The position numbers and the translations under genes were made by a program. A model generated the notes under the pieces. It worked only from the letters and a program-made list of their open reading frames with translations. It was not told the origin of the DNA and did no database searches. From contig QPGO01000323.1 of assembly GCA_008632985.1 (NCBI GenBank), positions 1-55,287 on the forward strand: a stretch of DNA of 55,287 nucleotides. Direction: 5' to 3'. Every line of letters starts with the position of its first letter. Position 1 is the stretch's first letter. The DNA comes from Psammoneis japonica (Eukaryota). Shown here one piece after another: positions 1 through 55,140 of the stretch.

Positions 1-3000
1 GGTTTCAGCTTCGTGCTCGCGCCATGCCACCTTCACCTTTGCCATCTCCTCATTGATTGCACGAGCCCAACAATCTGTCCCCGTTTCCTGATCAACCGCA
101 AAGCGTCCTCCGTGGACTTGGGCAGTCGGGCCCAAACTTGTGAGTCATGCGCCAGTGTTTCTTCTTGACCTTGGACACAATGCGATTCCATTCACGTGGG
201 ACATGTGTGACCCACCAAGCAAAAGCAGGTTCTTCCGTCAACCTGTTCGCAACAGCATGCTCAGCAACTTCAATGGGGTTGGAGTCCTTTAGATCTTTGA
301 GTTTGACCCAAGATGAGCTGCCATCCTTCCATCCAACCAATGACTTCCATCCTTTTGTTGTGATCTTCTTCTTCTCCTTCCCGTCAGCGGTTCGTGCGGT
401 GCCGTCAGCAATCGACACCGCATTGTCACTCCTCTCGTGGTCCTGCATCTCGTGCAAGATAGAATGCTGGTTGCCCTCGCTGTCGACCTGAGCAAACATG
501 TTCTTGGCAATGACATTGGCTGCACACTCATCTGTGGTTCCGTCGGCATGTTCCACTTCGTTTTCGCGAGTGTCAAACAATGGGTTTTGATGCCGAGTCC
601 CAATTGGACGCCCATCCTGTCCTCTTGCACGTTTCGTTNGCCGTCAGCTCCGATGTCAAACATGAGTTCCATTCCCAGGTGTTGATTGATTGCCTGCTCG
701 TCATCGTCGTCTGGTCACTCGTCGGGCAACAGCATGTTGCCACACTCCTCGTCCTCTGGCGTGATGCCACCCTCACATTCCACACCAAGGTTGCCGTCAA
801 TTGCAAGATTATCCAACACGAATGCGGGCACAGCTTCATTGCCTTTTAAGACAAAGTCAGCATCGTCCAATCGCTTCTTCAGCTGCTCGTTAAAGTTGTC
901 GACCTCAACACGAATGTCCGGTTGTGCCATGTCAGCCTGTGTCACATGCTCGACCAATGTTTTGGAGACAATCTTCCCGCTTTCCACAACAATCCAATGG
1001 CACATGTCCAAGCCAACTTTGTGTGAGATGCCAAGCCACCGTCCAAGCCTTCGAGGATCGTCAGTTGCACTCGGCTTGTTGGGCCTGTCCCACCACCATG
1101 CCATGTCGAAGAAACCAAAATCCAAACACTCGCCTGTCTCTGGTGTCTGCCCAGTGACCTCTTCACATCCAGCCCTCTTGTCCCTGCCTCTTGCCATGCA
1201 CGACACTAATTCTGACTCGCAAACAAGACCAAAATCCCACAATCGCTTTGGCACCTTCTTCTTTGTCATCCGCAGCCAACAACGTTTGGCCAAGAAACCA
1301 ATTTCGCGCTCCGCTGCCTGGTTCTGGTTCTTCCGACCCTGCTCTGATGTTCTCAATTGAACTCTCATGCATCGTACGTGTCTCACAAGCCTGTCGCAAA
1401 ATGATTGAAGTTGACAGATGGGAGACATGGACGACAGTTGCATTTCGACCTCGCCCCAGCGTGCTGCTTGGGACTTTGCCTTCTCGCTCCTTAGTTCCGA
1501 GACCTGTTCTTGTCGCATGCCAGAGGTCAATGATTGAATGGCACGCATCTCCGCCTGCTCTCTAGCGCGCTCTGGCAAGCCCATGTCCATCTGTGCTGGA
1601 TCCCATGCATCACCTGTCAACAGCACAACCGGCAAGTTCTGTGCTTCCCAATCCGTTGGAACACGAGACTTGAAAGACACAATTGTCCCTGTGGCATTGA
1701 AAGGGATGAAAGCTTCGTCAGCTTCAATGCCAAATCCGTTTCGGGCGTCGCAAGGGTTGTCGTGTGCGGGCATGTTGTGCGCACGGAGTTGGTTAGGATT
1801 CAAAAGTGAGTGTTGCATGTTGGTCCCAAACCAGAGCATTTGATCACCAACCAGCAAACATTCACGAGTCGTTTCCGGATCTGTCCATGCGGTGCAACAA
1901 CGTGCCACAGGAATCTGTTTGATCAGCTCACAAGAGTCCAGAAATGGGTGCACCTCGCACACTTCATTTGTCATCTCCATGAGCTTCCAGTTCGCCCCAG
2001 TGCAACAAGTGTCTGCGTGAGTGTCACATTCATTTCGAGCGACAAACCCAGGTGTTGTCAAATTTGTCATCTGTGCAGAACTCGTCGATCGGATCACACA
2101 TTTTGATGTCACGGCAATGTGCCTCTTTGTCGCCTTTCCTTTGAAACGAGATGTTGGGTGGGGTTTGGTCAACAGCAAGAAGGGTGGCACAAGCAAAAAC
2201 GACAAGTGTGCCAAATGCACCAACACTCCAGTGGCTGTTGCCACCCCAAGGAGTCAGGTGGAGCCATTGCATCCACCGCGATCCCGGTCAGCGCCGCGAC
2301 CACGCCCGCCACTCCTTTGCTCCTGATCCTGTTGTTGGGTTTGGCCTTGGCCATCTTGACAGACTTGGGCTTCAGCCACATGCCTGCCGCCCCCATCGCG
2401 TCCTTGTTGACCTGCGGGAGACCCACGGCCACCACCGCGTCCATGACCCATTCGTTCGCCAGCTTGGAACACGCAGCTCATGCCTCCATTGTGCTGTGAC
2501 TTTTCCCATTCTAGAGCACTAAAGCTCCTTGTAGGGTCGGATGCATTGACTCCATTGATCATCGTAGTGTGGTCGCCACCTCTGCCTTGACGGCCACCAC
2601 CACGTCCGCGTCCACCCCCACGTCCAAATCTTCCTCCACGACCGCGACCTCGATAAAAACCGCGGCCACCACCGCCACCACGGCTCATTTCAGAAATCTT
2701 GCGCTTCAAGCAACGCCGGGCTTCCAACTGAGCACCTGCATGCAAACGAGAGACTTCGGATGAGAAACAAGCACATGCCCCCGCAAAGTCACGAGGGTGC
2801 TGACTGCCAATGACAGCCGTTGCTGCAATGAGACGAGTGTCATCCGTTCGGATCCCCTTTAGAAGAATGTCAACTTTCTGTCGTTCAGATTTGCAGTCGT
2901 CCGGTGATTTGTTCAAAGTGGTGAAAGCACTGGCAAGTTTGTCATTGAACTTTTCGAACGGGAGCGATCCTTCCTTTTCACAAATCAAGGTTTCAACAGT

Positions 3001-3494
3001 TGCCGCAGCCAGATGGATGCGCTTGCTCAACTCGCCCTGTCCATTGCAATGGTCAACCCATGCGTTGAATGCTCCACGTCCGTCTTCTGTCGCGTCAAAC
3101 GGTTCAATCCATGCCCACCCTGCTGTGTTGACCAAGTGTTCCTTCAACACACGGCAAACGCTGCGGTTGTCCTCGTCATGTGCGGCACCATTCATTGGCA
3201 TCTGGCACATGCGCTGTTGTTGAGCATCCGTGAATGCAGCCGGAGCTGGCATTGTCCTTACGACACAGTGAAGGGGTTCTTTCAACACGCCAAATTTCTG
3301 TGCCAAGAGATTCAGGAAAGCATCTTCGCACACATCAAAGTCATCGGGCTTGAACTTTACGAGACCGCTTGCCAACGTGTCCGAATCCATGTGCTCCTTT
3401 TCGATGTGCATGCCATTCCGGCCCGCAGCCACAGCTGCTGCATTAAAGTCTGCCGCAACCAATGGCTGATTCCGTTTGAGCAAATCCTGGCACC
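1..3494 (-). repeat. Copy 2 (cut by the window edge) of a 4598-bp tandem duplication of gag-pol
   Basis: Near-identical to 4581-8092 (offset 4598 after the N at 639, which replaces about 17 bp). Confidence 0.92.
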
Positions 3495-6400
3495 TTCCTC
3501 CTCAATGTCCCCGTAAAACTCGGTCCAGTCTGCGTTCGAATTGAAAATAGATTCATCAATCACCGGTTCCTTTGGATCAAATCCGATGCGTCCGACGTTC
3601 TGGTGTTTCTTCATGTGCGCAAATGCATGATGCAATGCCTCAAGATGTCCTTTCCTTGGATTAGCTTGATGTTGAGATGGGATTGAAACCTCATGCAAGA
3701 CATCGATGCGACCCAACTTGATCGCCCAACGACAAATCCCTGTCAGCTGCAAATGCATGTCCACCAAGTCGGGGCCCAACTCGTCCGTCACGTCCAGTTC
3801 CAGTTTGTGCTTTGGGGGTGGTGGATCCTTTGCACTGTTCTTCAGAACCTCTCCATTGCCATCTTCATCCAATGGGCCTTCCACAGCCTCAATCGCCGAT
3901 TTGACATGTGACCTCGGTGAACTCGCCCAGATTGTGCGCCCATCCTGAGTCTGAACCTTCTCAACGTTAGCTCCAAGACAAACTTCTGGTTCTCCTTCGC
4001 TGCCGGGCTTCACGGCACAGTGTTCACCCATTGCAGCAACAATGGACTTCCCTTGATGGGAAATGACCAGCATGTCATCGACGCAAACCAAAAGCACTTC
4101 ACAATGCTCGTGCCCATCCTCACGAGTCGCCGCACGCAAGTGGACATCTGGGTCCGCTCTCGTCGATTCGAAGCCTGAGTCACGTGAGACCGATGACAGT
4201 GCAGACCTCCAAGAGTGTCCCTGGCTCTTTGAGCCATGCAACGCCCGAGCAACAACAAGCACCTTTCCTTCGCACTCGCCGCATTCCTTTCCACCTTCAA
4301 ACCACATCTTTTCTGTGCACGGTGCATTGAGACAAGCATTCTCCAGATCAATCGCCGTGGTGTCGACACCATTCAAGGCTGCTGACAAGAATCCAAGTCG
4401 CGCACTGTCTCTGGAAACCACGCCAGAGCAAGTGATCGATGCCGGGGCCTCTGTCGTGTGTCCGCCAGCTACAAACCTTGCCTTTCTGGTGAAATCCATT
4501 TTAATGTCGAATGCCATGTGGCACCTGATCTCCTGACAACCACGCAAAGTTGTGCTCTTGCCCCCCTGGACGACTTGAGGGGTTTCAGCTTCGTGTTCGC
4601 GCCATGCCACCTTCACCTTTGCCATCTCCTCATTGATTGCACGAGCCCAACAATCTGTCCCCGTTTCCTGATCAACCCGCAAAGCGTCCTCTGTGGACTT
4701 GGGCAGTCGGGCCCCAAACTTGTGAGTCATGCGCCAGTGTTTCTTCTTGACCTTGGACACAATGCGATTCCATTCACGTGGGACATGTGTGACCCACCAA
4801 GCAAAAGCAGGTTCTTCCGTCAACCTGTTCGCAACAGCATGCTCAGCAACTTCAATGGGGTTGGAGTCCTTTAGATCTTTGAGTTTGACCCAAGATGAGC
4901 TGCCATCCTTCCATCCAACCAATGACTTCCATCCTTTTGTTGTGATCTTCTTCTTCTCCTTCCCGTCAGCGGTTCGTGCGGTGCCGTCAGCAATCGACAC
5001 CGCATTGTCACTCCTCTCGTGGTCCTGCATCTCGTGCAAGATAGAATGCTGGTTGCCCTCGCTGTCGACCTGAGCAAACATGTTCTTGGCAATGACATTG
5101 GCTGCACACTCATCTGTGGTTCCGTCGGCATGTTCCACTTCGTTTTCGCGAGTGTCAAACAATGGGTTTTGATGCCGAGTCCCAATTGGACGCCCATCCT
5201 GTCCTCTTGCACGTTTCGTTACAACACCATGTCGCTCGCCGTCAGCTCCGATGTCAAACATGAGTTCCATTCCCAGGTGTTGATTGATTGCCTGCTCGTC
5301 ATCGTCGTCTGGTCACTCGTCGTGCAACAGCATGTTGCCACACTCCTCGTCCTCTGGCGTGATGCCACCCTCACATTCCACACCAAGGTTGCCGTCAATT
5401 GCAAGATCATCCAACACGAATGCGGGCACAGCTTCATTGCCTTTTAAGACAAAGTCAGCATCGTCCAATCGCTTCTTCAGCTGCTCGTTAAAGTTGTCGA
5501 CCTCAACACGAATGTCCGGTTGTGCCATGTCAGCCTGTGTCACATGCTCGACCGATGTTTTGGAGACAATCTTCCCGCTTTCCACAACAATCCAATGGCA
5601 CATGTCCGAGCCAACTTTGTGTGAGATGCCAAGCCACCGTCCAAGCCTTCGAGGATCGTCAGTTGCACTCGGCTTGTTGGGCCTGTCCCACCACCATGCC
5701 ATGTCGAAGAAACCAAAATCCAAACACTCGCCTGTCTCTGGTGTCTGCCCAGTGACCTCTTCACATCCAGCCCTCTTGTCCCTGCCTCTTGCCATGCACG
5801 ACACTAATTCTGACTCGCAAACAAGACCAAAATCCCACAATCGCTTTGGCACCTTCTTCTTTGTCATCCGCAGCCAACAACGTTTGGCCAAGAAACCAAT
5901 TTCGCGCTCCGCTGCCTGGTTCTGGTTCTTCCGACCCTGCTCTGATGTTCTCAATTGAACTCTCATGCATCGTACGTGTCTCACAAGCCTGTCGCAAAAT
6001 GATTGAAGTTGACAGATGGGAGACATGGACGACAGTTGCATTTCGACCTCGCCCCAGCGTGCTGCTTGGGACTTTGCCTTCTCGCTCCTTAGTTCCGAGA
6101 CCTGTTCTTGTCGCATGCCAGAGGTCAATGATTGAATGGCACGCATCTCCGCCTGCTCTCTAGCGCGCTCTGGCAAGCCCATGTCCATCTGTGCTGGATC
6201 CCATGCATCACCTGTCAACAGCACAACCGGCAAGTTCTGTGCTTCCCAATCCGTTGGAACACGAGACTTGAAAGACACAATTGTCCCTGTGGCATTGAAA
6301 GGGATGAAAGCTTCGTCAGCTTCAATGCCAAATCCGTTTCGGGCGTCGCAAGGGTTGTCGTGTGCGGGCATGTTGTGCGCACGGAGTTGGTTAGGATTCA

Positions 6401-6842
6401 AAAGTGAGTGTTGCATGTTGGTCCCAAACCAGAGCATTTGATCACCAACCAGCAAACATTCACGAGTCGTTTCCGGATCTGTCCATGCGGTGCAACAACG
6501 TGCCACAGGAATCTGTTTGATCAGCTCACAAGAGTCCAGAAATGGGTGCACCTCGCACACTTCATTTGTCATCTCCATGAGCTTCCAGTTCGCCCCAGTG
6601 CAACAAGTGTCTGCGTGAGTGTCACATTCATTTCGAGCGACAAACCCAGGTGTTGTCAAATTTGTCATCTGTGCAGAACTCGTCGATCGGATCACACATT
6701 TTGATGTCACGGCAATGTGCCTCTTTGTCGCCTTTCCTTTGAAACGAGATGTTGGGTGGGGTTTGGTCAACAGCAAGAAGGGTGGCACAAGCAAAAACGA
6801 CAAGTGTGCCAAATGCACCAACACTCCAGTGGCTGTTGCCAC
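3495..6842 (-). pseudogene. pol: copia A pol (protease, integrase lacking its core, chromo-like domain, RT; RNase H lost at the duplication junction)
   Basis: ORFs 5313-6842 and 3357-5270 contain DTHADT, WKDGSSSW, RKARFVAGGH, DLENACL, ALHGSKS and CVDD (from YVDD). Confidence 0.9.
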
Positions 6843-8092
6843 CCCAAGGAGTCAGGTGGAGCCATTGCATCCACCGCGATCCCGGTCAGCGCCGCGACCA
6901 CGCCCGCCACTCCTTTGCTCCTGATCCTGTTGTTGGGTTTGGCCTTGGCCATCTTGACAGACTTGGGCTTCAGCCACATGCCTGCCGCCCCCATCGCGTC
7001 CTTGTTGACCTGCGGGAGACCCACAGCCACCACCGCGTCCATGACCCATTCGTTCGCCAGCTTGGAACACGCAGCTCATGCCTCCATTGTGCTGTGACTT
7101 TTCCCATTCTAGAGCACTAAAGCTCCTTGTAGGGTCGGATGCATTGACTCCATTGATCATCGTAGTGTGGTCGCCACCTCTGCCTTGACGGCCACCACCA
7201 CGTCCGCGTCCACCCCCACGTCCAAATCTTCCTCCACGACCGCGACCTCGATAAAAACCGCGGCCACCACCGCCACCACGGCTCATTTCAGAAATCTTGC
7301 GCTTCAAGCAATGCCGGGCTTCCAACTGAGCACCTGCATGCAAACGAGAGACTTCGGATGAGAAACAAGCACATGCCCCCGCAAAGTCACGAGGGTGCTG
7401 ACTGCCAATGACAGCCGTTGCTGCAATGAGACGAGTGTCATCCGTTCGGATCCCCTTTAGAAGAATGTCAACTTTCTGTCGTTCAGATTTGCAGTCGTCC
7501 GGTGATTTGTTCAAAGTGGCGAAAGCACTGGCAAGTTTGTCATTGAACTTTTCGAACGGGAGCGATCCTTCCTTTTCACAAATCAAGGTTTCAACAGTTG
7601 CCGCAGCCAGATGGATGCGCTTGCTCAACTCGCCCTGTCCATTGCAATGGTCAACCCATGCGTTGAATGCTCCACGTCCGTCTTCTGTTGCGTCAAACGG
7701 TTCAATCCATGCCCACCCTGCTGTGTTGACCAAGTGTTCCTTCAACACACGGCAAACGCTGCGGTTGTCCTTGTCATGTGCGGCACCATTCATTGGCATC
7801 TGGCACATGCGCTGTTGTTGAGCATCCGTGAATGCAGCCGGAGCTGGCATTGTCCTTACGACACAGTGAAGGGGTTCTTTCAACACGCCAAATTTCTGTG
7901 CCAAGAGATTCAGGAAAGCATCTTCGCACACATCAAAGTCATCGGGCTTGAACTTTACGAGACCGCTTGCCAACGTGTCCGAATCCATGTGCTCCTTTTC
8001 GATGTGCATGCCATTCCGGCCCGCAGCCACAGCTGCTGCATTAAAGTCTGCCACAACCAATGGCTGATTCCGTTTGAGCAAATCCTGGCACC
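3495..8092 (-). repeat. Copy 1 of the 4598-bp tandem duplication
   Basis: The junction at 3494/3495 (ggcacc|ttcctcctc) joins the end of RT (FYGDIEEE) to mid-gag (WCQDLLKR). Confidence 0.92.
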
Positions 8093-8366
8093 ACCACACT
8101 GGCGCCTGCAAGTTCTTGATCTGAACAGTCCCAAGAGTCACACGTCCATCGGCCACCGTGCGACGAGACGCCCTCTGTGCCATGTCTTCCACATTGTGAT
8201 CACTCTCCATCACTGTGATGTTTTCCAAAGTCATGGGCCCTTCACAGAAGACCAACCTCGCCCTTGCGTTCTGGCCAGCAACACCACAAACTGGCAAAAC
8301 TGCGTCAATGTCAGCTGCCATGGCTGACGCCACAAGTGCTGCTGCTGGTGCTGCCGCTGCTGCCAT
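6852..8366 (-). pseudogene. gag: copia A gag with an RGG-rich C-terminus
   Basis: Open frame with copia gag motifs (AWIEPF..DGRGAF..GQGE, ERQKVDILLKGI). Only one Tyr remains. Confidence 0.85.
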
Positions 8367-8826
8367 CCCACAACAGAGAAAGGGTGTGAAGGTCCCACAC
8401 AAGGAACACACAGCTGTGAGTCTGCATGGTCATGATGGCTGCACTTTCTCTGTGTTGTGATGACGGGTTCACACAGCCACCCGACGTCAGGGTGATCAGT
8501 CCTGTGTCGTTCATGTCAACCAACATTGTTGAGCACACGCTCGGGCATGTCGCCCAATGCCGCAGTCCCTTCACACCCATCACATGTGTGAGGACAGTCA
8601 CTGTCTTTGAGAGTGTCACCATTGCAAGCTGTTTTTGTGGATGTCACAACAAGTGACACGAGACGCATCATCGTGCGCATCAATCCGAATTCTGACGCAT
8701 CGCGCACAGTTCAGCACCGTTTCTACAGCTGCACGTTCCATGCAAACAGCACAACAAACAATCGTCCATGACGAATTGTGTTTGAAACCATTTCGCTCTG
8801 TCTTTTTCGTCTTGGCTCTGACAAAG

Positions 8827-9008
8827 CGAATAAATCTCGATGCAATGAAAGAACAAGCACGACACCTTGAGTCTAAATGGAAAGCAGCGACACTGTCAAT
8901 GCAAGCCTGAACCTGATTAGATTGTGAGTGTGTTGCTGCAGCACCACTCGATCCATGTGTCTCAACCAATCACCAATTGCAACACAGCCCTCCATCCAGA
9001 TTCACTCG
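8827..9008 (-). repeat. 5' LTR of copia A (182 bp, CG...CG termini)
   Basis: Homologous to 27858-28039 and 34543-34692. A PBS-like ctttgtcagagcc follows immediately (8814-8826, minus). Confidence 0.88.
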
Positions 9009-9029
9009 CGTGCACGCCGTGGTTGCCAG

Positions 9030-9830: not shown

Positions 9831-9853
9831 ATTGAAAGCACCTGCATGTTTTC

Positions 9854-11620: not shown

Positions 11621-11692
11621 ACAGGGGTTGGACTTCGCCGCCTCCACCCCCTCAGACCATCAGGCGTCCACCAGACATCTCATCTCCTCCAA

Positions 11693-14600
11693 ATGATTCC
11701 CTCGCCATCTTCCATTTGTTCCACTGCACTGCCAAGTGTTCTCCTGCAGCGCAGCATCACCCGACAGTCAGAGCTCCAAGCCCCAGTCTTCTCCTTGGAG
11801 GAGCGTGGCCCCAACATGAGCAGTGACTCCATTGGTGCATCCTGCATTGACAAATGGCAATCACTCCTGAGTGGCACCAGCAACAGCGCATCAAGCACTT
11901 GAAGCAGTGATTTTTCTTGGCTGACATCCAATGATCCTGTTGGTGATGACCTTCGTCTGAAGCTGCCTCATCACACTCGACTGCATGCATTCAACGCCAA
12001 TGGTTGTAAATTGGACAAAAGAGGTGGCGACGTTCGTGAATGTTGTCAAATGGCAAACGAGATCCAAGCAGATGTCATGGGCATTTTGGAAGTCTGTCTG
12101 GACACTGCACAGTGTGAAATTTTGTCAGTGTGTCGATCTGCTGCACACAGTGCAATTTCCAACAGATGCAGCACCTTCTCATGCAGCTCTGCCCCCTTTG
12201 CCACTCAGCACAAACCTGGTGGTGCGGCCCTTTTGTCGGGGAACTCCATCTCAGCATGATGCCAAAGCCAAGAATCAGATCCACTGGGCCGTTGGTCTGC
12301 TCAGATCTTCGACGGGCGCAATGGCAAGCAAGTCATGTTCCTTTCGTGCTGCAGAGTTTGTGCAAAAAATCAAAGGACCCCTGGAAAGACTGCAGCATGT
12401 GCACAACAAGCAGCCCTTTTACGACAAAACGGTGGACAGTCCATTGACCCCAGGAAGGAATTTTGCACGGATTTATCTTGTTGCCTGCAAGAGTTCTTGG
12501 TCAACTCAAATCGTGAAGTCATCATTTGCGGAGATTTCATCACTGATTTTTTGATTGACGCGGACACTCTCGCCTCCCTTGCACAGCGTTTTACCCTTTT
12601 GGATGTGTCACATGATTTGATGGGCAGCACTGAATTTTCCACATGCACGCCAGGACGGAAATGCCTGGACTTTGTGCTTGCTGCCCCCGGTGCCTTGTCT
12701 GCTTCCAGGTTCAGCAGATGTGAAGCATTCGGTTGTCGCATCACTTCAGACCACCACGCTTGCTTCGTGGACTTTGACACGATGGCCTTGTCTGGGAACC
12801 CCACAGTTGACTTGCCTGAGGCCAGCTGCAGGGACATCCAGTGTTCTTCACAACCCCAAATTGCAACCTGCTCAGATGCCATTGGACAGATGTTGGCCAG
12901 CAGACAAATCTTGGCTTGCTCACAGGCACTGCTTGATCAAGACGCCCCTGATCACAAACCAGCAGAAAGGTCAGATTGAGGCATGTTGCAGCTCTCCTTG
13001 GCTGCTGCTGAGAAGTGTCGGGTCCACCAAGAACCAGAGTGGTCGGTTGAACTGTCACAACTGTGGCACCGAGTTCATGTCCTTGGCCATGTGGTCTCAA
13101 TGATGCACACCCGCCTGGATCAAGTCAGCCATGTCCACACTGTCTGAGACAAGCTGCAAGGTTCTTTTGCCTTCCCAGGCTGAATGTGGACAAGTTGCTG
13201 CTGAGAGCGTTGCACACTGCAAAAATGAAATGGCCAAGAAGATTGCCTCACTAGAAGTGGAAGGCACAAAGGAGTCAAAACAGAAACAAAGATCACACAA
13301 AATGTCCACAAGGCCAAAGAAACCAAGAAACTTTTCTGCAAGATTGAATGCTGCAAACTTGACAGTGACAATGGCATCAACAGCGTGCAGGTGCCCCGGA
13401 ACCCCATGGTGAATCCCAAAGAGTGTGAGGACTGGGTTGCCATGGACGCCCCAGATGATGTGGCTTCCGCCATCTGCCACCGCAGCCAGCATCATTTCGG
13501 TCAAGGAGCGTGGCCCCAACATGAGCAGTGACTCCATTGGTGCATCCTGCATTGACAAATGGCAATCACTCCTGAGCGGCACCAGCAACAACGCATCAAG
13601 CACTCGAAGCAGTGATTTTTCTTGGCTGACATCCAATGATCCTGTTGGTGATGACCTTCGTCCGAAGCTGCCTCATCACACTCGACTGCACGCATTCAAT
13701 GCCAATGGTTGTAAATTGGACAAAAGAGGTGGTGACATTCGTGAATGTTGTCAAATGGCAAACGAGATCCAAGCAGACGTCATGGGCATTTTGGAAGTCT
13801 GTCTGGACACTGCACAGTGTGAAATTTTGTCAGTGTGTCGATCTGCTGCACACAGTGCAATTTCCAACAGACGCAGCACCTTCTCATGCAGCTCTGCCCC
13901 CTTTGCCACTCAGCACAAACCTGGTGGTGCGGCCCTTTTGTCGGGGAACTCCATCTCAGCATGATGCCGAAGCCAAGAATCAGATCCACTGGGCCGTTGG
14001 TCTGATCAGATCTTTGACGGGTGCAATGGCAAGCAAGTCACGCTCCTTTTGTGCTGCAGAGTTTGTGCGAAAAATCAAAGGACCCATGGAAAGACTGCAG
14101 CATGTGCACAACAAGCAGCCCTTTTACGACAAAACGGTGGACAGTCCATTGACCCCAGGAAGGAATTTTGCACGGATTTGTCTTGTTGCCTGCAAGAGTT
14201 CTTGGTCAACTCAAATCGTGAAGTCATCATTTGCGGAGATTTCATCACTGACTTTTTGATTGACGCGGACACTCTCGCCTCCCTTGCACAGCGTTTTACC
14301 CTTTTGGATGTGTCACATGATTTGATGGGCAGCACTGAATTTTCCACATGCACGCCAGGACGGAAATGCCTGGACTTTGTGCTTGCTGCCCCCAGTGCCT
14401 TGTCTGCTTCCAGGTTCGGTGGATGTGAAGCATTTGGTTGTCGCATCGCTTCAGACCACCGCGCTTGCTTCGTGGACTTTGACACGATGGCCTTGTCTGG
14501 AAACCCCACAGTTGACTTGCCCAAGGCCAGCTGCAGGGACATCCAGTCTTCTTCACAACCCCAAATTGCAACCTGCTTAGATGCCACAGGACAGATGTCA

Positions 14601-30045: not shown

Positions 30046-30054
30046 CTCCTTGGG

Positions 30055-43060: not shown

Positions 43061-43179
43061 GAAGCTGTGCTTCGATTGACTCTGTTGACAAACACATCCG
43101 CCGAACCCTGACTGTGCCGGTGAAATCAATCCCAAGCAATCACATGTTGTGTTGCGTCGTGCGCATGTGTTGTGTTGCC

Positions 43180-43500
43180 TTGTTGTTTGTTGTTGTTGTT
43201 TCGGGTTGTCCTTTGGCGCCGTTTGTTAGATGCAGCTGACATGGTCTTTTGACAACACTGCACACACAATGCAAACCTGCAATTGCAAGAACCATTCAAT
43301 GCGTTCATGCAAACCCAAACTGCCTTTCTTTGTCCAACCTTGTAACTGCTTGATCCAAAAACAACATCACACTTTTCGCCACAGCACTTTGTGGGGAACA
43401 GTGGGTTGGTTTTGAAGCACGCTTGAGTGGAATATTTTCCGTCATCTTGATGGACCAAGGCATGGAACAAGTGAGCCTCCTCGCACTTGCACTGCAAACA
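43180..43500 (-). pseudogene. Small Cys-rich, possibly zinc-binding protein fragment (second copy at about 48413-48733)
   Basis: CEEAH..PTKCCGEKC..VWVCMN..CRFALCVQC within ORF 43126-43686; some of the Cys are probably former Tyr. Confidence 0.4.
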
Positions 43501-43879
43501 CAAACAAACAAACACAATTGGTTTGCATGCGTGAACAAGACAACACAACAACAGGCATGCCAAATCAACAATGACGTTCGCTCCACACCTGCGAATTGCA
43601 AGCAGTTGTTTGATCCACTTGAGCCACAACGAGTGTTGCAGTTTTGTGTGTGCGTTTGTCATTTGCTGTCTTTGTCTTTGTTGCAAACAAACAACAAAGT
43701 GAGAGGTGATGTTTCCAAGACACTGCGCACAATCTGCACGACTTCATCATGCATTCTCACCGCTTTGTTTTGCAATGGATTTAACAATGGTTTAGAGTGG
43801 TTGGCTGGTTGAGTCTGCAAAAGAAATGCCATCATGACACACATTGAATGCCGTTGGATCAACTTCTCAATGGCAATCC

Positions 43880-44500
43880 GGAGCACCAACAATGCTCTCA
43901 CCTTTTCATTTGCGCCATTTGCCATTGTCTCTTCGACCTTTCTCATTGCAAACAACAATGGCTGTGTGAGACGTGTCCGATGAATTGCACAATTGGCTGC
44001 AAGACAATGTGATCTTGCCGTCTTCTGTGGTGCTCTCTCTGGCATTTCAGCAACTGGGGATGGTTGAGTCTGGCATCCAGCAATGACACCCCAAAGTGGT
44101 TGGAGCAATTGTTTCATTTGCAACTGGAGCACCGACAATGCTCTCACCTTTTCATTGTTGCCACTGTCAACCACCTCATTTGCCTGGTCATGAAGAACAG
44201 CAGGAGCAGTGTGATTGGTCAATCCAATCCATGTGTCGTGCTCTGCCTCAGAACTCTGTTCACCCACTTGTTTTTTTGTGCTCGCTCCAGTGTTTCAACT
44301 GTCTGGGATGGTTTGGTGTGGCATCCCAGCAACCCAATGAGGCCAAAGAGCTGTTAGAGCAACAGTCCAAATTGACAGCTGGAGCACCGACAATGCTCTC
44401 ACCTTTTCTTTTGCACCAGTTGGCTCGTCCATCTCATCAACCTTTTGCATGAAGAACAGTGGTGTGAGCGACGTGCAATTCAGCCGCATGACATGGTGCA
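43880..44500. repeat. Three diverged units of about 250 bp
   Basis: ggagcacc(a/g)acaatgctctcaccttttc at about 43880, 44126 and 44381. Confidence 0.7.
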
Positions 44501-45130
44501 TTTTTCTTGCCGCTGGAGCGTTCCCGGGCTCTTGTTCCATCCTGCAACAAGGGGACCCAGACAGCTGTGTCTGACAAGCCAAAAAAGGCATCAAAGCGGA
44601 AGTTGGTTAGAGCCATCCAACACCACAGCAATTGGACCACCAAATCACACAGTCACCTGTGACACATCCAAATCCATGGTGAGGGGTTCTGGTTCATCAT
44701 TGCGCTCCCGACGAGGAATTTGCTCTGCCTCCTTCTCCTTCTCGGTTAACTTCCGCTTTGCCGTTGGTTCGGATGGGCAATTTAGCGCGGTGTCCATGGT
44801 CAGTGTTGACACCTGAGTTTCGAACTCATGTTGCAGATCAAGCACAATCTCTTCGTTGACCATTTGGGATGAACTGGTGACTGTCATGCTGCCACGAATC
44901 GACTGGAGCAAATCTTCCTTGGACAGCGGAACTCCCATTTGTTCTGACAACATGCTTGCTGTTTTCGCAAGGTCCACAAGGGATGCAATGTCAATGTCTT
45001 TGCTGGATGCTCCCTGAGCAACTTGTTTTGATGCTTCGGTGTTCTCCTCCTGCTGTCAAGGACCGGAAATGGGAACGAAGTTGTCAACCAAACAAGATTG
45101 TCAACAAAAGGACAAACAAACAATGTGCGA

Positions 45131-45895
45131 CTAACTCACCGCCACTGGTTTCATCGACACGATGTAAAACTTTGCTTTGGTTGTTGTCCCCGCATTGGTT
45201 GCAGCGGGGACGGCCACATGTGTTTTACCTCCATTCTCCTTGTTGCTCTTGTGCATTGTAGTTGCCACACACCAGCCTGCTTTCCGCAGCATAAACTCGA
45301 CAAACATTTTAATTGTTTGACATTTGGCTTGGCGTGCCACCACAGCAAACCCGCCTCTGTCATCGCGGTGCATTTTGCGAGGTTTGCTGGAAGTGTCCGT
45401 GGTGTGCGGCATGAGCTTCATGTTGTTTGCGGTGAACCATTTGTCAATGGCAGCAGCCAGCCATCCTCTGTTGCGATGAAAGGCGTGGAAAACTTGACAC
45501 ACGAGCTGCTGATTCTCGGTTGTGTTGTCCATGCTTGCCAGAATGTTTTTGAAGTCTTCTGTTGTGACGGGATTGGTGTTTGTTGATGGCATCACCACTT
45601 CCTTGTCCATTGCATTTTTCTGACAGCCCTCCAGGTGTTGAGTCATGACGTGTTGTCGAAGGGACGACCGGATTTGTGCCACCTCTTGAAGCATCTTCTT
45701 GCCATTGGGCGGCACCGTCTCCACCTCACCAAGTTGTGGACGTGCCTTTAGGCATGACCACAAAAGAGCAGCATCCTCTGGTCTTGTGGGGTCAGCCCCT
45801 GTCGTCGGATGGAAAAAGTCTCTTGGACAATCCAATGGACGATTGGGCGCTGTTGTTTTTTCCCCTGGATTTGTTGCAGAAGCTTCCCACTGCAT
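45131..45895 (-). pseudogene. Unknown protein-like ORF, possibly spliced to 44645-44977 (second copy at 50334-51128)
   Basis: Composition looks like a real globular protein; no family recognised. Confidence 0.4.
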
Positions 45896-48800
45896 GTCAG
45901 ATCACAATGTTGGCTTCCAAACACACACTTTGATTTCAAATGCACCTGCCTGTGTTCCCTGCTGTTGCAACATCTGTCCTTGACGGGGTTGTGTTTCCCT
46001 CTGTTGAAGTGTTTGCCCTCGATGTGTTTGTAAGATCAAGGCTGACGACCGACACCTGTGTCTGATGAAATGAATTCGTCATTGTGTTTTCGACTTCTAA
46101 TTGCTTTTCACACTTGTGGATGGTCCGGGACGAGCCGAATCTGTTTGGCGCAATTGCAAAGTCACGGTTGCATGTTCTCATTGCACGGTTTTTGAGTTGT
46201 GTTCAGTTTCATTCATTTCTGCATTTTTTGTTGTTTCAATCAAGCACTGTTGTTCTGAAATGAACATTCACAACCATGTCGACCTGTTGTGTTAAGAAGA
46301 TTGTTCTTTCCTCCCATTTGCAACAAAATTTTCTTTAAACAAAAATTGGGTTCTCATTGGTTCACTTTTGAATGCATGATTTTCCACAATTGAAGTTTGA
46401 TTTTTCATGTGTGTTCTTTTTTAAAGTGAACGCTTCATCTACGTTGTTGAATGAAATGCATTGTGCAATCACACGATTGGGTGGGAGTGCATGCACGCGC
46501 GCGTGCTGCTCTTTCAGCGTGTGGAACATGTGTGGGGCCCCACGTGCAGGGCTTGTCTGCAAATGCGCAGTGCAGCAGAGTGCATGTGTTTTGCGCTTTT
46601 GGTGATTGAGAGCACATGCGTTGCTCCACCTCATTTTCACAAATCCTCTGCGCTGCGCAAGCCCATCAACAGAACTGCGATCCCTCCCCTCTTTTCCATC
46701 CAATCATCTTTTGGGACTCTTCTTGAATCTTGCATCTTGCTCTTTTGTGCGTTGAACAATCCCAAATGACGCCATGGACGACATGGCAAACAATTGGGGG
46801 TGCAATTTGGTTGCCGTTAGCCCGCGTGGCTTAAAACGCAATGGCGAAGATTTGATGAATTCTTCCATGGACATCGGCCATCACAAGCAGTTGGAAGAAG
46901 TCATTTTTTGTCACTTTGATGGCGAATTGCTGCTGCACAAAGTGACGCCAAACGGCTCCAATGCAAATTTGTTGGCTGCCACCTGCACTGCCATTGACGA
47001 GGACCTCATTGCTGCCACCCGTCTTGCAGGAGCTCAGCATGCACAGGACAGGCAATGCCTGCATGACCTCTTGAAGAAGCCAGTGACAGGGGGGCCTGGG
47101 TGGGCTTTTGTCAAACCTTCCAATCGCAGCCACGATGGTTGCACTGCCTTCTTTGCACTTGAGAGGCAGGCGGAAGGATCAACTGCCGCCACCACCCGAA
47201 AGAACTGTGCTCATGCACAGATTGCCACCGCAAAGTGCACCGGACGAGGTCAATTTACATTTGACCAGTGTGTTCAGCGTCATCAAAAGGCTCGCAACGA
47301 CTTGTCTGAGCTCAACGAACCGGCAGCCAAGACCAAGAAGGTCTCTGACTTTCTGAAGGGCATTTCTGACCCTGGGTTGGAAACTGGTGAGAGCGCAGTG
47401 GATGGAGACCCAACGAAGCTGGTGGACTTTGAGGCATGCCAGCAGTGTGTGAAAACTCTGGTCGAGAATGCCAAGAACCGCAATGTTGACACTCGCAGGG
47501 TTGCATCCATCCAATGCTGCAACAACAGGCACACTGACCCTGGTGGGAAGCACCAACCTAAAAAGGACAAGCCCAGAATCCGGGCAGGTCATTGTCCCAT
47601 CAAAGAGTGGAGTGCTCTTGACGGTCCCGAACGAGAGCAAGTCCAAAAGCTCCGTGATGCCAAGAAGGCCGAGAAGAAATGCAAAGCTGCTGCTGCGTCC
47701 TTGGAGGCTGAGTCGGTCGACACCAAAACTCGTGCCGCAAAGAAAGTGGCTGTCGCCGAGCCCACTTCTCAACCTGCTGATGCACCGAAAGACTCCGAAG
47801 AGAATGACAAACCTGCCGCCAATGCAGGTGCCCAACTCCACTGCAGATGAGATTCTCTTCATTTGTGCTCCGAACACTTTATTCTGAGCAACGCTTCATT
47901 TAAATTGTCCCGACACAATGTGGGACATTCAGAGCAAACAAGAGTCAATTAAGGCGACAACGCCCATGCAGAGCACAATCAGAGTAAATTTGGTCATTCG
48001 GAGCCATGGAATTTTGTTTGGAGCATTGCATCCAGAGCATCAATTTGCAAATTAGAGCATTGTGCTGACATTCAGAGCGCTGCTGTGATTGTGTCCATTC
48101 AATCAGAGCACGACTCTGAATGATGTTTGGATGCCCGTGGAATCTCCATTTAATTGGAGCAAAGCTCTGAATGGACAACGGACATTTGGCTAGAGCAAAG
48201 CTCTGAATGAACAACGGACGACGACAGCCTCTCCATTTAAACAGATCACAGCTGTGATCAAATTTGCTGATGCTCTGAATGACTGTCATTTACGAAGCTG
48301 TGCTTCGATTGACTCTGTTGACAAACACATCCGCCGAACCCTGACTGTGCCGGTGAAATCAATCCCAAGCAATCACATGTTGTGTTGCGTTGTGCGCATG
48401 TGTTGTGTTGCCTTGTTGTTTGTTGTTGTTGTTTCGGGTTGTCCTTTGGCGCCGTTTGTTAGATGCAGCTGACATGGTCTTTTGACAACACTGCACACAC
48501 AATGCAAACCTGCAATTGCAGGAACCATTCAATGCGTTCATGCAAACCCAAACTGCCTTTCTTTGTCCAACCTTGTAACTGCTTGATCCAAAAACAACAT
48601 CACACTTTTCACCACAGCACTTTGCAGGGAACAGTGGGTTGGTTTTGAAGCACGCTTGAGTGGAATGTTTTCCGTCATCTTGATGGACCAAGGCATGGAA
48701 CAAGTGAGCCTCCTCGCACTTGCACTGCAAACACAAACAAACAAACACAATTGGTTTGCATGCGTGGACAAGACAACACAACAACAGGCATGCCAAATCA

Positions 48801-51800
48801 ACAATGACGTTTGCTCCACACCTGCGAATTGCAAGCAGTTGTTTGATCCACTTGAGCCACAACGAGTGTTGCAGTTTTGTGTGTGCGTTTGTCATTTGCT
48901 GTCTTTGTCTTTGTTGCAAACAAACAACAAAGTGAGAGGTGATGTTTCCAAGACACTGCGCACAATCTGCACGACTTCATCATGCATTCTCACCGCTTTG
49001 TTTTGCAATGGATTTAACAATGGTTTAGAGTGGTTGGCTGGTTGAGTCTGCAAAAGAAATGCCATCATGACACACATTGAATGCCGTTGGATCAACTTCT
49101 CAATGGCAATCTGGAGCACCAACAATGCTCTCACCTTTTCATTTGTGCCATTTGCCATTGTCTCTTCGACCTTTCTCATTGCAAACAACAATGGCTGTGT
49201 GAGATGTGTCCGATGAATTGCACAATTGGCTGCAAGACAATGTGATCTTGCCGTCTTCTGTGGTGCTCTCTCTGGCATTTCAGCAACTGGGGATGGTTGA
49301 GTCTGGCATCCAGCAATGACGCCCCAAAGTGGTTGGAGCAATTGTTTCATTTGCAACTGGAGCACCGACAATGCTCTCACCTTTTCATTGTTGCCACTGT
49401 CAACCACCTCATTTGCCTGGTCATGAAGAACAGCAGGAGCAGTGTGATTGGTCAATCCAATCCATGTGTCGTGCTCTGCCTCAGAACTCTGTTCACCCAC
49501 TTGTTTTTTTTGTGCTCGCTCCAGTGTTTCAACTGTCTGGGATGGTTTGGTGTGGCATCCAGCAACCCAATGAGGCCAAAGAGCTGTTAGAGCAACAGTC
49601 CAAATTGACAGCTGGAGCACCGACAATGCTCTCACCTTTTCTTTTGCACCAGTTGGCTCGTCCATCTCATCAACCTTTTGCATGAAGAACAGTGGTGTGA
49701 GCGACGTGCAATTCAGCCGCATGACATGGTGCATTTTTCTTGCCGCTGGAGCGTTCCCGGGCTCTTGTTCCATCCTGCAACAAGGGGACCCAGACAGCTG
49801 TGTCTGACAAGCCAAAAAAGGCATCAAAGCGGAAGTTGGTTAGAGCCATCCAACACCACAGCAATTGGACCACCAAATCACACAGTCACCTGTGACACAT
49901 CCAAATCCATGGTGAGGGGTTCTAGTTCATCATTGCGCTCCCGACGAGGAATTTGCTCTGCCTCCTTCTCCTTCTCGGTTAACTTCCGCTTTGCCGTTGG
50001 TTCGGATGGGCAATTTAGCGCGGTGTCCATGGTCAGTGTTGACACCTGAGTTTCGAACTCATGTTGCAGATCAAGCACAATCTCTTCGTTGACCATTTGG
50101 GATGAACTGGTGACTGTCATGCTGCCACGAATCGACTGGAGCAAATCTTCCTTGGACAGCGGAACTCCCATTTGTTCTGACAACATGCTTGCTGTTTTCG
50201 CAAGGTCCACAAGGGATGCAATGTCAATGTCTTTGCTGGATGCTCCCTGAGCAACTTGTTTTGATGCTTCAGTGTTCTCCTCCTGCTGTCAAGGACCGGA
50301 AATGGGAACGAAGTCGTCAACCAAACAAGATTGTCAACAAAAGGACAAACAAACAATGTGCGACTGACTCACCGCCACTGGTTTCATCGACACGATGTAA
50401 AACTTTGCTTTGGTTGTTGTTTCCGCATTGGTTGCAGCGGGGACGGCCACATGTGTTTTACCTCCATTCTCCTTGTTGCTCTTGTGCATTGTAGTTGCCA
50501 CACACCAGCCTGCTTTCCGCAGCATGAACTCGACAAACGTTTTAATTGTTTGACATTTGGCTTGGCGTGCCACCACAGCAAACCCGCCTCTGTCATCACG
50601 GTGCATTTTGCGAGGTTTGCTGGAAGCGTCCGTGGTGCGCGGCATGAGCTTCATGTTGTTTGCGGTGAACCATTTGTCAATGGCAGCAGCCAGCCATCCT
50701 CTGTTGCGATGAAAGGCGTGGAAAACTTGACACACGAGCTGCTGATTCTCGGTTGTGTTGTCCATGCTTGCCAGAATGTTTTTGAAGTCTTCTGTTGTGA
50801 CGGGATTGGTGTTTGTTGATGGCATCACCACTTCCTTGTCCATTGCATTTTTCTGACAGCCCTCCAGGTGTTGAGTCATGACGTGTTGTCGAAGGGACGA
50901 CCGGATTTGTGCCACCTCTTGAAGCATCTTCTTGCCATTGGGCGGCACCGTCTCCACCTCACCAAGTTGTGGACGTGCCTTTAGGCATGACCACAAAAGA
51001 GCAGCATCCTCTGGTCTTGTGGGGTCAGCCCCTGTCGTCGGATGGAAAAAGTCTCTTGGACAATCCAATGGACGATTGGGCACTGTTGTTTTTTCCCCTG
51101 GATTTGTTGCAGAAGCTTCCCACTGCATGTCAGATCACAATGTTGGCTTCCAAACACACACTTTGATTTCAAATGCACCTGCCTGTGTTCCCCGCTGTTG
51201 CAACATCTGTCCTTGACGGGGTTGTGTTTCCCTCTGTTGAAGTGTTTGCCCTCGATGTGTTTGCAAGATCAAGGCTGACGACCGACACCTGTGTCTGATG
51301 AAATGAGTTCGTCATTGTGTTTTTGACTTCTGATTGCTTTTCACACTTGTGGATGGTCCGGGACAAGCCGAATCTGTTTGGCGCAATTGCAAAGTCACGG
51401 TTGCATGTTCTCATTGCGCGGTTTTTGAGTTGTGTTCAGTTTCATTCATTTCTGCATTTTTTGTTGTTTCAATCAAGCACTGTTGTTCTGAAATGAACAC
51501 TCACAACCATGTCGACCTGTTGTGTTAAGAAGATTGTTCTTTCCTCCCATTTGCAACAAAATTTTCTTTAAACAAAAATTGGGTTCTCATTGGCTCACTT
51601 TTGAATGCATGATTTTCCACAATTGAAGTTTGATTTTTCATGTGTGTTCTTTTTTAAAGTGAGCGCTTCATCTACGTTGTTGAATGAAATGCATTGTGCA
51701 ATCACACGATTGGGTGGGAGTGCATGCGCGCGCGCGTGCTGCTCTTTCAGCGTGTGGAACATGTGTGGGGCCCCACGTGCAGGGCTTGTCTGCAAATGCG

Positions 51801-52006
51801 CAGTGCAGCAGAATGCATGTGTTTTGCGCTTTTGGTGATTGAGAGCACATGCGTTGCTCCACCTCATTTTCACAAATCCTCTGCGCTGCGCAAGCCCATC
51901 AACAGAACTGCGATCCCTCCCCTCTTTTCCATCCAATCATCTTTTGGGACTCTTCTTGAATCTTGCATCTTGCTCTTTTGCGCGTTGAACAATCCCAAAC
52001 GATGCC

Positions 52007-53506
52007 ATGGACGACATGGCAAACAATTGGGGGTGCAATTTGGTTGCCGTTAGCCTGCGTGGCTTAAAACGCAATGGCAAAGATTTGATGAATTCTTCCA
52101 TGGACATTGGCCATCACAAGCAGTTGGAAGAAGTCATTTTTCGTCACTTTGATGGTGAATTGCTGCTGCACAAAGTGATGCCAAACGGCTCCGATGCAAA
52201 TTTGTTTGCAATTAATTCTGTGACGGGAGGTTGTGTGGCCGGCGATCATGGGCCTGTCCACTGTTGGACTGCCAGCACGTTCAGTGCAGAACATGGTCCG
52301 AGCACGGCAATGCACCCAGATGACGTGTTTAACTCTTTTACACGCAATCACACCATTGCGCTGCCGCATCATGTGCCAGGCACTCTGAGCTCCGCGGAGC
52401 TCAGTGAGCACGAAAACGATTGTCTCAACCACATTCATCTCCGTTGTTTGATGCAGGCTGTAAAGAAGGTGCCAATCACTGCATTGTTTTTAGAATTGAT
52501 GCTGGCAAACAATGGCGCAACACTCAGCGACAACTTTCTAGAATCTCTCGGTCGGTTGGCTCACCACCATTCCTTTGAGATTGTTGTTGATGAAATTGTG
52601 ACGGGCGGACGCAGTGGATGCATGCTGTCATGCCTGGCCAAACCCAAGCATTTTGTTGATGCTGTTGCCTGTGTTGCCATGGGCAAATGGCTGCAAGCTG
52701 GCACAGTTTTAGCAAAACCCGATCGTTGCAATCGGTTTTGCAGCATGACATCATCTCTTCCCAATCGTGGTGCCTCCACGGGCATGGATTGCAAACAAAC
52801 TGTCATGACATGGAAGACTGCAACTTCACAGTTTCATCTTACAGCCGAGCGTCAACAAACTGTCCTGAAGAAACTCAAAGTGACAGAGCAAGATGCGTGG
52901 GGCAGCGGCTTGCTTGTGTTTGCTCCTGTGAAACGAAGTGATCTGACACCAGTGATCAAGAATCGTTTCCTTCCTTTGCTTTGCGCCGCCCCATTGGACA
53001 ACGTGAAAGTCCAAAAGCACGATCAGTGGACGAAGCCTCTTGTGAGCCAATGCATTGTTGATGGGTGCCGCTGTTGGTCAAACGCACACCCGCACACGGA
53101 CGAGGAAATGAGCGGCACACACAAATTGCTCAGTCATTTTGCGGATCAACCCGCGGGCACGTGTTTTCAAACTAAGGGGCTCATGATGAATGTCCTTGGT
53201 GGGAAGCCTCACACACTGCCGCAAACGTGCCAACTGTTGCGTGCTGCAGAAAAGGCCGGGCTTGTTGGCAAAACATTGGTGACTTGCAAATGCCTGCATG
53301 CCTGGAAATCGTTGGCCCCGACAACCATGTCAAGCAAGAAGAACCAACCTGCAATTGCATTGTCTTGCCGCTTGCGTTTGTGCAACCTTGTTTGGACAGC
53401 CTTCGGCATTTCAAAAAAAACTGCTTCCTCCACTGCTGATTTTGGATCTTCTGCCAGTGCATCTGTTTCAAATGTGTCATTCCCTGAACACCAATTCAAC
53501 CACTGA
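52007..53506 (+). pseudogene. Class-III PLP-dependent aminotransferase-like gene
   Basis: NGSDANLFAI, ALFLELML, IVVDEIVTGGRSG and VAMGKWLQAG match the SGSEAN / EP / DEVxTGxGRxG / GK signature. No Tyr in 499 aa. Confidence 0.7.
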
Positions 53507-54306: not shown

Positions 54307-54360
54307 GGTTCATCTTCCCTCCTCCAATGTCCCCTGTCATTCGTCGCTCCAAAATGGTCT

Positions 54361-55140
54361 TCAGCAAATGTTCTGCCGTGCTTGAAATCTTCGAACCATC
54401 CACACAAAACTGGCTGGCACCTCACTTTCATCCGGCCGTGTGGCCCGATCGACCCACTCAAAGCCATGCAGCCGTTCCAATTCTTTGGCATCCTCACAGC
54501 ACATCCTCGCCTCATGACGTAGATCTTGACATTTCTTGTCCCCAGCAGACAACACTTTTCTTCGTGACACAAGGAGACCTTGATCTTCTGGCTCCGATTC
54601 GGACTCCTCTTCCTCTGGGTCACCATCTCCCTCTTGTGGTTTCGGCTCCGTCTTTTCTCTCTTGTTTCCCCTGGCAGAGAATTTTTTGTCAAGCATCGCC
54701 TCCTTCGCCAGCTCTGTAAAACGACATTGTCGGAACAACCGATTGATCTGGTGCCAATGCAGTTGTTCCGCTTCTTTGCACCAAATTGCAGTGTGTCGCA
54801 AAGGTGGCAGAAAGAAATCCTTTTTGTTCAACCGCACTTGGCATTTCTCTGGGTCCTTCAGAGTTTCTCTGTCTTCTTGTGCAGCGCCAATCAGCAGTTC
54901 GCACACTGCACTTTTGCTTTGTGCAGTGCAAATGGGGCACTTGCCCGGAACACACATTGCATGATCACAGCAAGGTCCCGCAAGGGCTGAAAACAAAGTT
55001 GCTGCTGGTGACAGTCCACCTTGATCTTCCTGGTTGCAGTCGATGGGAAACACCATGTTGCACGTGCTGCACTTCAAATGGATGCTTTCAAGAAGTTGGC
55101 GTGTGGCTCCATCATCACCCAAAGGCATTTCCATTTCCAT
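54361..55140 (-). pseudogene. Unknown ORF with CxxC motifs and an acidic linker
   Basis: CSTC...CDHAMC..CPIC (RING-like spacing). It probably belongs to the same frameshifted gene as 53500-54306. Confidence 0.35.

Follow-up and report, generated by a model that had tools for sequence, protein, structure and literature searches.

Residual TA sites in TA-erased repeat DNA from Psammoneis japonica as a candidate footprint of a strand-wise TpA mutator with a CpG-adjacent exception

The stretch of DNA analyzed here (the window) covers positions 1 to 55,287 of contig QPGO01000323.1 in the Psammoneis japonica assembly GCA_008632985.1, and consists of repeat DNA from which the dinucleotide TA has been nearly erased. 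We put at about 0.55 the probability that the TAs still present record, as a footprint, which substrates were preferred by a mutator that swept this repeat DNA, converting TpA to TpG or CpA. The A of each strand is attacked separately, such that the survival of a site is the product of its two half-sites. The rate at each half-site depends on the bases lying 3' of the edited A (numbered +1, +2, and +3, and equivalent to the bases 5' of the T on the other strand): a pyrimidine (Y) at +1 makes it hot and a purine (R) roughly 10-fold colder, an A at +2 leaves TAR nearly immune, and an A or T at +3 aids survival. A CpG occupying +1 and +2 forms an exception, lifting the survival of TAC about 10-fold, only where it directly adjoins the target.

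Across the window, 246 TA dinucleotides remain, an observed-to-expected ratio (o/e) of 0.08, with CA and TG both at 1.63, CG at 0.64, and the remaining dinucleotides close to 1; AA, GA, and AT show no depletion. The depletion forms a single tract from position 1 to 55,287, in which every 2-kb bin has a TA o/e of 0.02-0.14 and a CpG o/e of 0.31-0.96, and TA density ranges from 0 to 11 per kb. All 2-kb bins being depleted, the window holds no unmutated stretch that could serve as an internal contrast for the confinement of the mutator to repeat DNA.

The direction of change, from TA to CA or TG, is seen in three Ty1/copia copies with weak RVT_2 remnants: A1 (1-3494, minus strand; partial, 99.1% identical to 4581-8092 by self-BLAST), A2 (3495-9008, minus strand; RVT_2 remnant with a Pfam E value of 2.3e-8 on the open reading frame (ORF) 3357-5312), and B (27858-33877, plus strand; 92.4% identical to A2), which serves as an independent replicate of the A copies and as their outgroup. 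The alignment of A2 with B (5,513 aligned bases) contains 88 sites at which one copy has CA and the other TG, 15 TAs shared by both copies (11 of them YTAR), and 19 TAs present in one copy. The ancestor of a CA/TG discordant site must have been TA or CG, and decay of CpG, estimated from 224 CG/CG and 137 CG/decayed sites, is expected to account for only about 10.5 of the 88; hence, some 78 discordances represent TAs edited independently on opposite strands. The changes are nearly exclusively A>G/T>C at TpA, and since conversion at homologous sites proceeded independently in A and B, with edits on both strands, they followed integration or duplication. The encoded protein tells the same direction. 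At columns in which Tyr occurs in 80% or more of 12 homologues, copy A keeps 1 of 16 (8 changed to His, 6 to Cys) and copy B none of 15 (7 to Cys, 5 to His), while other residues of copy A are mostly retained (Gly 30/31, Asp 27/30, Trp 13/14), with Ile (8/17) and Leu (21/31) in between; the codons ATA, TTA, and CTA also contain TA.

CpG decay is a second, ordinary process acting on the same DNA. Of the 12 substitutions that separate A1 from A2, 9 are at CpG, and at 8 of these 9 the outgroup B has CG. In the A/B pair, CpG decay per copy is 0.23, which amounts to about 0.12 for each cytosine of a copy, other transitions running at about 0.006; CpG decay is some 19 times faster and suggests that the CpGs here are mostly methylated; in diatoms, the methylation described is predominantly at CpG (PMC5124317). 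Plain deamination of 5-methylcytosine (5mC) was nevertheless rejected as the whole explanation of the tract, as it covers only about 10 of the 88 discordances. For comparison, we collected 80 related Copia loci from metagenome contigs, which have TA o/e values of 0.49-0.93 and among which none is TA-depleted; a scan of viral contigs for other hypermutated DNA yielded no relative. Four of the 80 loci (L031, L059, L071, and L078), with CpG o/e as low as 0.14-0.27, keep a TA o/e of 0.60-0.82, which shows that methylation decay occurs in other hosts without a TA mutator and that CpG decay alone leaves TA in place.

The TAs that do remain are dominated by TTAA (53), TTAG (44), CTAA (25), and CTAG (25), as a first-pass annotation made from the letters of this DNA had noted. 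Together these YTAR sites make up 147 of 246, compared with 16.5% in the 80 relatives, while only 21 survivors lie in ATA or TAT contexts. We masked the later copy of each repeat of at least 75% identity and at least 90 bases (19,114 bases masked, 36,173 left, with 154 TA sites), and the YTAR share stays at 57% (88/154; odds ratio (OR) against the relatives 6.8, p=6e-30). Among the 99 exceptions, 33 touch a CpG, in line with the same annotation's remark that exceptions are often TACG or CGTA, and the 16 positions it gave are all correct; after masking, the CpG-flanked share of non-YTAR sites is 36% (24/66), as opposed to 15% in the relatives (OR 3.2, p=1.6e-5). These 33 sites, spanning 1373 to 54521, comprise 22 TACG and 14 CGTA, with 3 CGTACG counted in both. 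TACG starts at 1375, 3259, 3358, 5973, 7857, 7956, 11373, 12420, 14125, 16312, 16684, 18787, 20761, 20952, 21540, 32392, 33857, 41659, 43058, 46440, 48291, and 51673, and CGTA at 1373, 2563, 3512, 5971, 7161, 15938, 16388, 20389, 21485, 27430, 27444, 32390, 35697, and 54518. The CGTACG at 1373-1378, in which the TA has a CpG on both sides, recurs at 5971-5976 and 32390-32395, so that this TA is present in A1, A2, and B; of the double-CpG sites in columns 3539 and 4535 of the A/B alignment, one has TA in one copy and CA in the other.

Surviving Tyr codons are few. The 16 long ORFs that were covered contain five, of which three are TAC followed by G and two are TAT followed by C (FYRG, one site within a recent duplicate). 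The TAC-G codons are that of FYGD at 3512-3515 (minus strand), the only conserved Tyr retained in copy A, its homologue in copy B at 33857-33860 (plus strand; the TA is common to A and B, alignment column 6000), and that of HYER at 16684-16687 (plus strand) in ORF 16393-17892. The claim of the first-pass annotation that most surviving Tyr are TAC-G holds for these three of five codons, a small number, with FYGD and HYER both among them; LYGL, also named there, lies outside the 16 ORFs.

Three normalisations were used to estimate survival by context. In the first, TA/(TA+CA+TG) was computed per 3' context in the masked window with both strands folded together; in the second, discordant CA/TG sites in 11 older repeat pairs were taken as converted ancestral TAs; and in the third, the 80 relatives supplied the baseline. 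By the first index, TACG survives at 25/640 (0.039), TACC at 3/948 (0.003), TACT at 4/880 (0.005), and TACA at 22/1547 (0.014), giving an OR of 10.6 for TACG against TACC and TACT combined (25/640 versus 7/1828, p=7.5e-10) and of 2.8 against TACA (p=5e-4). The older pairs yield discordant/single/shared counts of 22/8/2 for TACG, 25/0/1 for TACC, 25/1/0 for TACT, and 28/4/2 for TACA. Normalised on the relatives, in which the TA share is flat over TACN (0.276-0.315), half-site survival is 0.34 for TAGA, 0.29 for TAAA, 0.127 for TACG, 0.04-0.12 for other TAR, 0.052 for TACA, 0.015 for TACT, 0.010 for TACC, and 0.009-0.022 with T at +1. Across all three, TACG thus survives about 10 times as often as TACC and TACT and 2.4-2.8 times as often as TACA. 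The sparing of TACG put forward in the first-pass annotation therefore stands once ancestral frequency is allowed for, with survival above that of TACA, TACC, and TACT alike, in the sense of relative protection and not immunity, as most TACG sites were edited.

Beyond +1, the survival index, which spans more than 20-fold across contexts, shows structure beyond what the first-pass annotation had named. An A at +2 protects about 3-fold in each row (TAAA versus TAAB, where B is any base but A, OR 3.0; TAGA versus TAGB, OR 4.2; TACA versus TACY, OR 3.75), whereas a G there gives no protection when +1 is A or G (OR 0.67 and 0.42). When +1 and +2 enter a logistic model as main effects, the CG cell stands out as the one large outlier (x15.6; likelihood-ratio chi2 58.5, p=2e-14). 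Within TACG, the base at +3 also matters (TACGA 11/162, TACGT 9/150, TACGG 4/137, TACGC 1/191; p=0.009), with 20/312 surviving for A or T and 5/328 for C or G. The TACG excess has the same direction in 5 of 5 partitions of the window, significantly so in 3, and is found in both the low and the high half of local CpG o/e; this last quantity was discarded as a methylation proxy, the effect being equal in both halves. Regional patchiness as the source of the excess was likewise rejected, as the frequency of CG at offsets 1-40 from a surviving TA is 0.044 versus 0.041. A CpG one base further away (TA-N-CG) has no effect (0.94), and hence only the directly adjacent CpG counts. TATG, the top-strand decay product of TACG, is nearly absent among survivors (4/1441).

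Which of the two adenines was edited can be asked of the products. In place of the raw TGCG:CACG ratio, we used the share of converted ancestral TAs that had become TG, with the relatives as baseline. The share edited on the A with a given +1 base is 0.14 for A, 0.29 for G, 0.59 for T, and 0.70 for C, and at polarised single-TA sites in the older pairs, the edited A had Y at +1 in 13 cases and R in 1. These shares and contests indicate that the rate is governed by what lies 3' of the edited A, and they bear out the earlier proposal of TAY (on the other strand, RTA) as the target of choice. Survival indices by class (TAR+TAR 0.049, TAR+TAY 0.0073, TAY+TAY 0.001 or 1/979, TACG+TAR 0.065) fit a product model: a site survives as the product of its two halves, with each strand hit independently. 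The 88 discordant sites show no runs of one strand (40 runs versus 45 expected, z=-1.07), and strand processivity was rejected for lack of run structure; the sense-strand share of edits is 0.57-0.58. The pattern is consistent with independent events at single bases of duplex DNA, and not with editing of retroelement RNA or of long single-stranded tracts. The A at +2, the effect of +3, the independence of the strands, and the mixture of TACG sites described below all go beyond what the first-pass annotation had claimed.

The agent would be an enzyme that acts on duplex DNA and takes out one A at a time; an adenine deaminase, turning A into hypoxanthine, which is read as G, would be the simplest candidate. 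It would contact the T at -1 plus two or three bases 3' of the target. The pattern implies the reading of sequence rather than passive drift, a point on which the earlier claim and the present data agree.

For the CpG exception, the products and the survivors differ in what they suggest. The product ratio of TACG is 0.68 (confidence interval (CI) 0.52-0.82), close to that of TACC (0.71) and typical of a hot context, whereas its survival of 0.13 (CI 0.08-0.20) is as high as in cold contexts; among cold TAR contexts that survive to a similar extent, product ratios are 0.09-0.40. In direct contests with TAR halves, the CG-side A was the one edited in 4 of 4 cases, including 3 of 3 for TACGA halves. 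This is suggestive of a mixture, in which the majority of ancestral TACG sites would have been converted like any other TAC while a subset was protected, and the combination of a hot product ratio with cold survival favors a site-specific state of the CpG, such as methylation or a bound protein, over a uniformly poor substrate. The CpG effect would then depend on CpG state rather than on plain sequence preference. We consider such gating by CpG state the probable cause, and divide it about equally between protection by the methylated CpG (or a reader of it) and protection by the unmethylated or otherwise occupied CpG; a contribution from altogether different causes appears improbable. The earlier suggestion that 5mC or a CpG-bound protein blocks the reaction is thereby favored as to some effect of CpG state and runs into difficulty as to a direct block by 5mC, T being the hottest neighbor at +1.

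Several points weigh against our interpretation. A-targeting and T-targeting chemistry are indistinguishable from sequence, and part of the residual TAs found in hot contexts may have arisen anew by TG-to-TA mutation instead of surviving. All three normalisations are proxies for a true ancestral sequence, the rates come from one window, and the relatives are all Copia, while the window holds other families too. As to the CpG exception, the product ratio of TACGA/T is 0.59 with a CI of 0.33-0.88 that overlaps the cold contexts, which makes an intrinsic TACGW preference (W being A or T) possible, and the pair data for TACG (2 shared, 8 single, 22 discordant) are, on their own, compatible with a uniform rate. 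The evidence on which CpG state protects, methylated or unmethylated, conflicts: the hottest +1 base is T, most TACG sites were edited, and the +3 ranking is inverted relative to cytosine decay, all of which sit badly with a direct 5mC block. By pair-based estimates, the decay of the +1 cytosine is 0.067, 0.076, 0.095, and 0.117 when the base after CG is A, T, G, and C, respectively, and TA survival (A>T>G>C) is the exact inverse, on four points only; because pair-based and composition-based estimates disagree on CGC, the pair-based ranking that we used is a weak hint. Joint loss of CG and TA in one copy (2 of 5 conversions versus about 1.2 expected) is too infrequent to be of use.

If the same strand-wise editor simply disliked C-G-(A/T), with an active site reading +1 to +3 and neither methylation nor a bound protein involved, the dependence of protection on +3, the low bound of the TACGW product ratio, the equality of the effect in regions of low and high CpG o/e, and the uniform-rate fit of the TACG pairs would all follow. 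Such an intrinsic, extended specificity would place the TACG product ratio near 0.48, however, and the pooled value of 0.68 is higher; it also has to accommodate the editing of the TACGA side in every contest with TAR and the failure of a +2 G to protect after A or G at +1, and we regard it as rather unlikely, though the strongest of the rivals. Less likely still is that the methyl group of 5mC at +1 sterically blocks the reaction. The restriction of the effect to the adjacent CpG, the apparent methylation of CpGs in transposable elements, and the near absence of TATG among survivors are what such a block would produce. Thymine, however, bears the same C5 methyl group as 5mC, and T at +1 is the most favorable neighbor of all; moreover, most ancestral TACG sites were edited on the A adjoining a CpG of a kind that decays some 19 times faster than other positions, and the order of survival by +3 runs opposite to that of +1 cytosine decay.

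Other explanations deny that the residual TAs are survivors of a DNA mutator in the first place. Were they newly formed by ordinary mutation after the mutator had stopped, their context would be uninformative. One clear arrival exists in copy A1 (1-3494, minus strand), at column 3189 of the alignment of A1, A2, and B, where B has ACGAT, A2 ATGAT, and A1 ATAAT, most parsimoniously CG>TG>TA, and recent duplicates give Y versus R contests of 3:3 with TA/TG differences that fit a uniform G>A rate. A general origin of this kind would, however, give a flat index that mirrors the contexts of CA and TG instead of one varying more than 20-fold, and would not place TAs at homologous sites of A and B, most of them YTAR; arrivals cover only the floor of about 0.003-0.005 in hot contexts, and we hold this account to be very improbable. 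The same grade applies to a sequencing or assembly artefact, in which a modified base at heterochromatic TpA would be miscalled in a k-mer-dependent manner and the contexts would reflect the basecaller. Consensus strand choice could in principle yield CA in one copy and TG in another at the same site, but contigs from a public run, which may itself be the source data, agree with unique stretches of the window without a single difference over 383-678 bases, and CpG decay and inter-copy transversions behave as real divergence. Lastly, ADAR-like editing of retroelement RNA before integration would account for a preferred U or T 5' of the edited A and for the retrotransposon nature of the element. 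ADARs, however, prefer 5'UAG on double-stranded RNA (PMC10661471), and TAG is cold here (product share 0.29; survival 0.04-0.34). Both DNA strands are edited, sense T>C (0.43) being nearly as frequent as A>G (0.57), with Tyr to His and Tyr to Cys at 13 each, and non-coding repeats and tandem DNA duplications are depleted equally. The 3' preference and the two-strand symmetry already contradict an ADAR origin.

With a DNA mutator of TpA as the preferred reading, comparison with known systems is informative. TpA-restricted hypermutation of integrated giant-virus and virophage DNA has been described in Bigelowiella natans (Mettrop et al., bioRxiv 10.64898/2026.01.13.699255), where a defence by an ADAT2-like adenine deaminase is proposed. 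According to its main text, the changes there, as here, consist nearly entirely of A>G/T>C at TpA and yield TpG or CpA according to the strand, and transposon-like sequences show long-term TpA depletion with a gain of CpA and TpG. The lineage is chlorarachniophyte there and diatom-like here. The main text of that preprint stays at the dinucleotide level, and the words "context", "flanking", "CpG", and "diatom" are absent from it; it thus gives no account of rules for +1, +2, and +3, of a two-strand product model, or of a CpG effect. Table S2 of the preprint comprises 231 de novo mutations. In the literature we found no other TpA mutator of diatoms or algae, or its context, besides this preprint.

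Repeat-induced point mutation (RIP), as it occurs in Neurospora and other fungi, converts C to T at CpA and thereby creates TpA in repeats. Like RIP products, the present tract is repeat DNA dense in transitions at a single dinucleotide, with the base 3' of the target favored to graded degrees and coding capacity destroyed, but the chemistry and direction are opposite, RIP making TpA from CpA whereas TpA has been erased here. TadA and ADAT2 recognize a tRNA geometry of U33-A34, and these enzymes and the TadA-derived adenine base editors share with the present pattern a T or U directly 5' of the target A and TAC as a good substrate; some members are able to act on DNA. Of the features of a TadA-type specificity, a strict T at -1 and a hot TAC are found here, but survivors are rich in TACG and TAT is just as hot. 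The preferred context of TadA and ADAT2 is given as 5'ACG (PMC10661471), yet their cognate UACG is over-represented among the survivors, and TAT, which is no anticodon context, is at least as hot as TAC. As in hypermutation by APOBEC3 and ADAR, where a deaminase leaves a context-coded footprint that can be read from a few bases around its target (PMC10661471), the flanks are the record; APOBECs, in contrast, act on C. Among the literature matches listed, no paper on how 5mC affects adenine deaminases was found.

The remaining features of the window describe the DNA on which the mutator would have acted. Proteins closest to the copia copies reach up to 64% identity, and the named ones, which include Fragilaria crotonensis and a Cyclotella cryptica gene model, fit a diatom-like host, judging by similarity. 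A1 and A2 form a head-to-tail array of partial copia elements (1-9008), whose junction at 3494/3495 brings together positions equivalent to 28774 and 33877 of B; about 470 bases of B (30917-31385) are missing from both. A lone N at position 639, in copy A1, lies within a 6-base stretch that A1 lacks and where A2 has a TA site. There are two young tandem duplications, of 5.2 kb (41726-52209, as 41726-46976 and 46959-52209, 98.6% identical) and 1.7 kb (11799-15211, 97.2% identical), as well as several shorter repeat families. The two 5.2-kb copies have 30 TAs in common and 69 mismatches, of which 42 are CG versus TG or CA, 7 are TA versus TG, and 1 is TA versus CA. This ratio of 7 to 1 is a strand bias, and several of these differences are in hot ATA or TAT contexts and may reflect newly arisen TG>TA changes, not action of the mutator. 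Within the duplicated block (43853-44459 and 49086-49692) are tandem repeats of about 246-255 bases whose copies are some 66% alike. Short repeats at 27000-27663 and 40280-40943 have a summed contig word depth of about 40,000-52,000 in the public run (X1), as compared with about 30 for unique stretches, and appear to belong to an extremely abundant family. Among public reads, one DNA run contains a third of the words sampled from the window, with no RNA run listed as containing them, and contigs aligned at 80% likeness show thousands of variant positions.

Throughout the window (1-55287), stop codons are almost all TGA, since TAA and TAG have been erased, and many long false ORFs result. There are 27 stop-to-stop ORFs of at least 250 amino acids, the majority of which have no Pfam match. 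A Pfam search of 59 further ORFs found no family except for one sub-threshold match to Aminotran_3 at 51989-53506 on the plus strand (E value 8.2e-5; 21.9 bits versus a cut-off of 30.5), which may be a piece of a host gene that has been mutated.

With the context rules and the CpG exception, a kind of mutator that was described very recently, and is in print only in a single 2026 preprint on an unrelated alga, at the dinucleotide level, gains a new layer that can be tested. The quantitative motif (strand-wise action, T at -1, a hot Y at +1, a protective A at +2, and the CpG exception) provides a fingerprint for in vitro tests of candidate deaminases, and it argues against preferences of the ADAR type and may argue against those of the unmodified TadA type. 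For annotation, the rules let one anticipate which codons for Tyr, Leu, and Ile and which stop codons are lost, and they account for the long false ORFs. The CpG effect offers an entry to the question of whether cytosine methylation and adenine editing, two layers of silencing, interact; if gating by CpG state is true, then cytosine methylation, or a protein bound to CpG, and the TpA mutator would talk to each other. More tentatively, the tract could be the product of an adenine-editing genome defence in a diatom that is gated at single-base resolution by the state of the adjacent CpG, in which case the surviving TACG sites would record transposon methylation at the time of attack.

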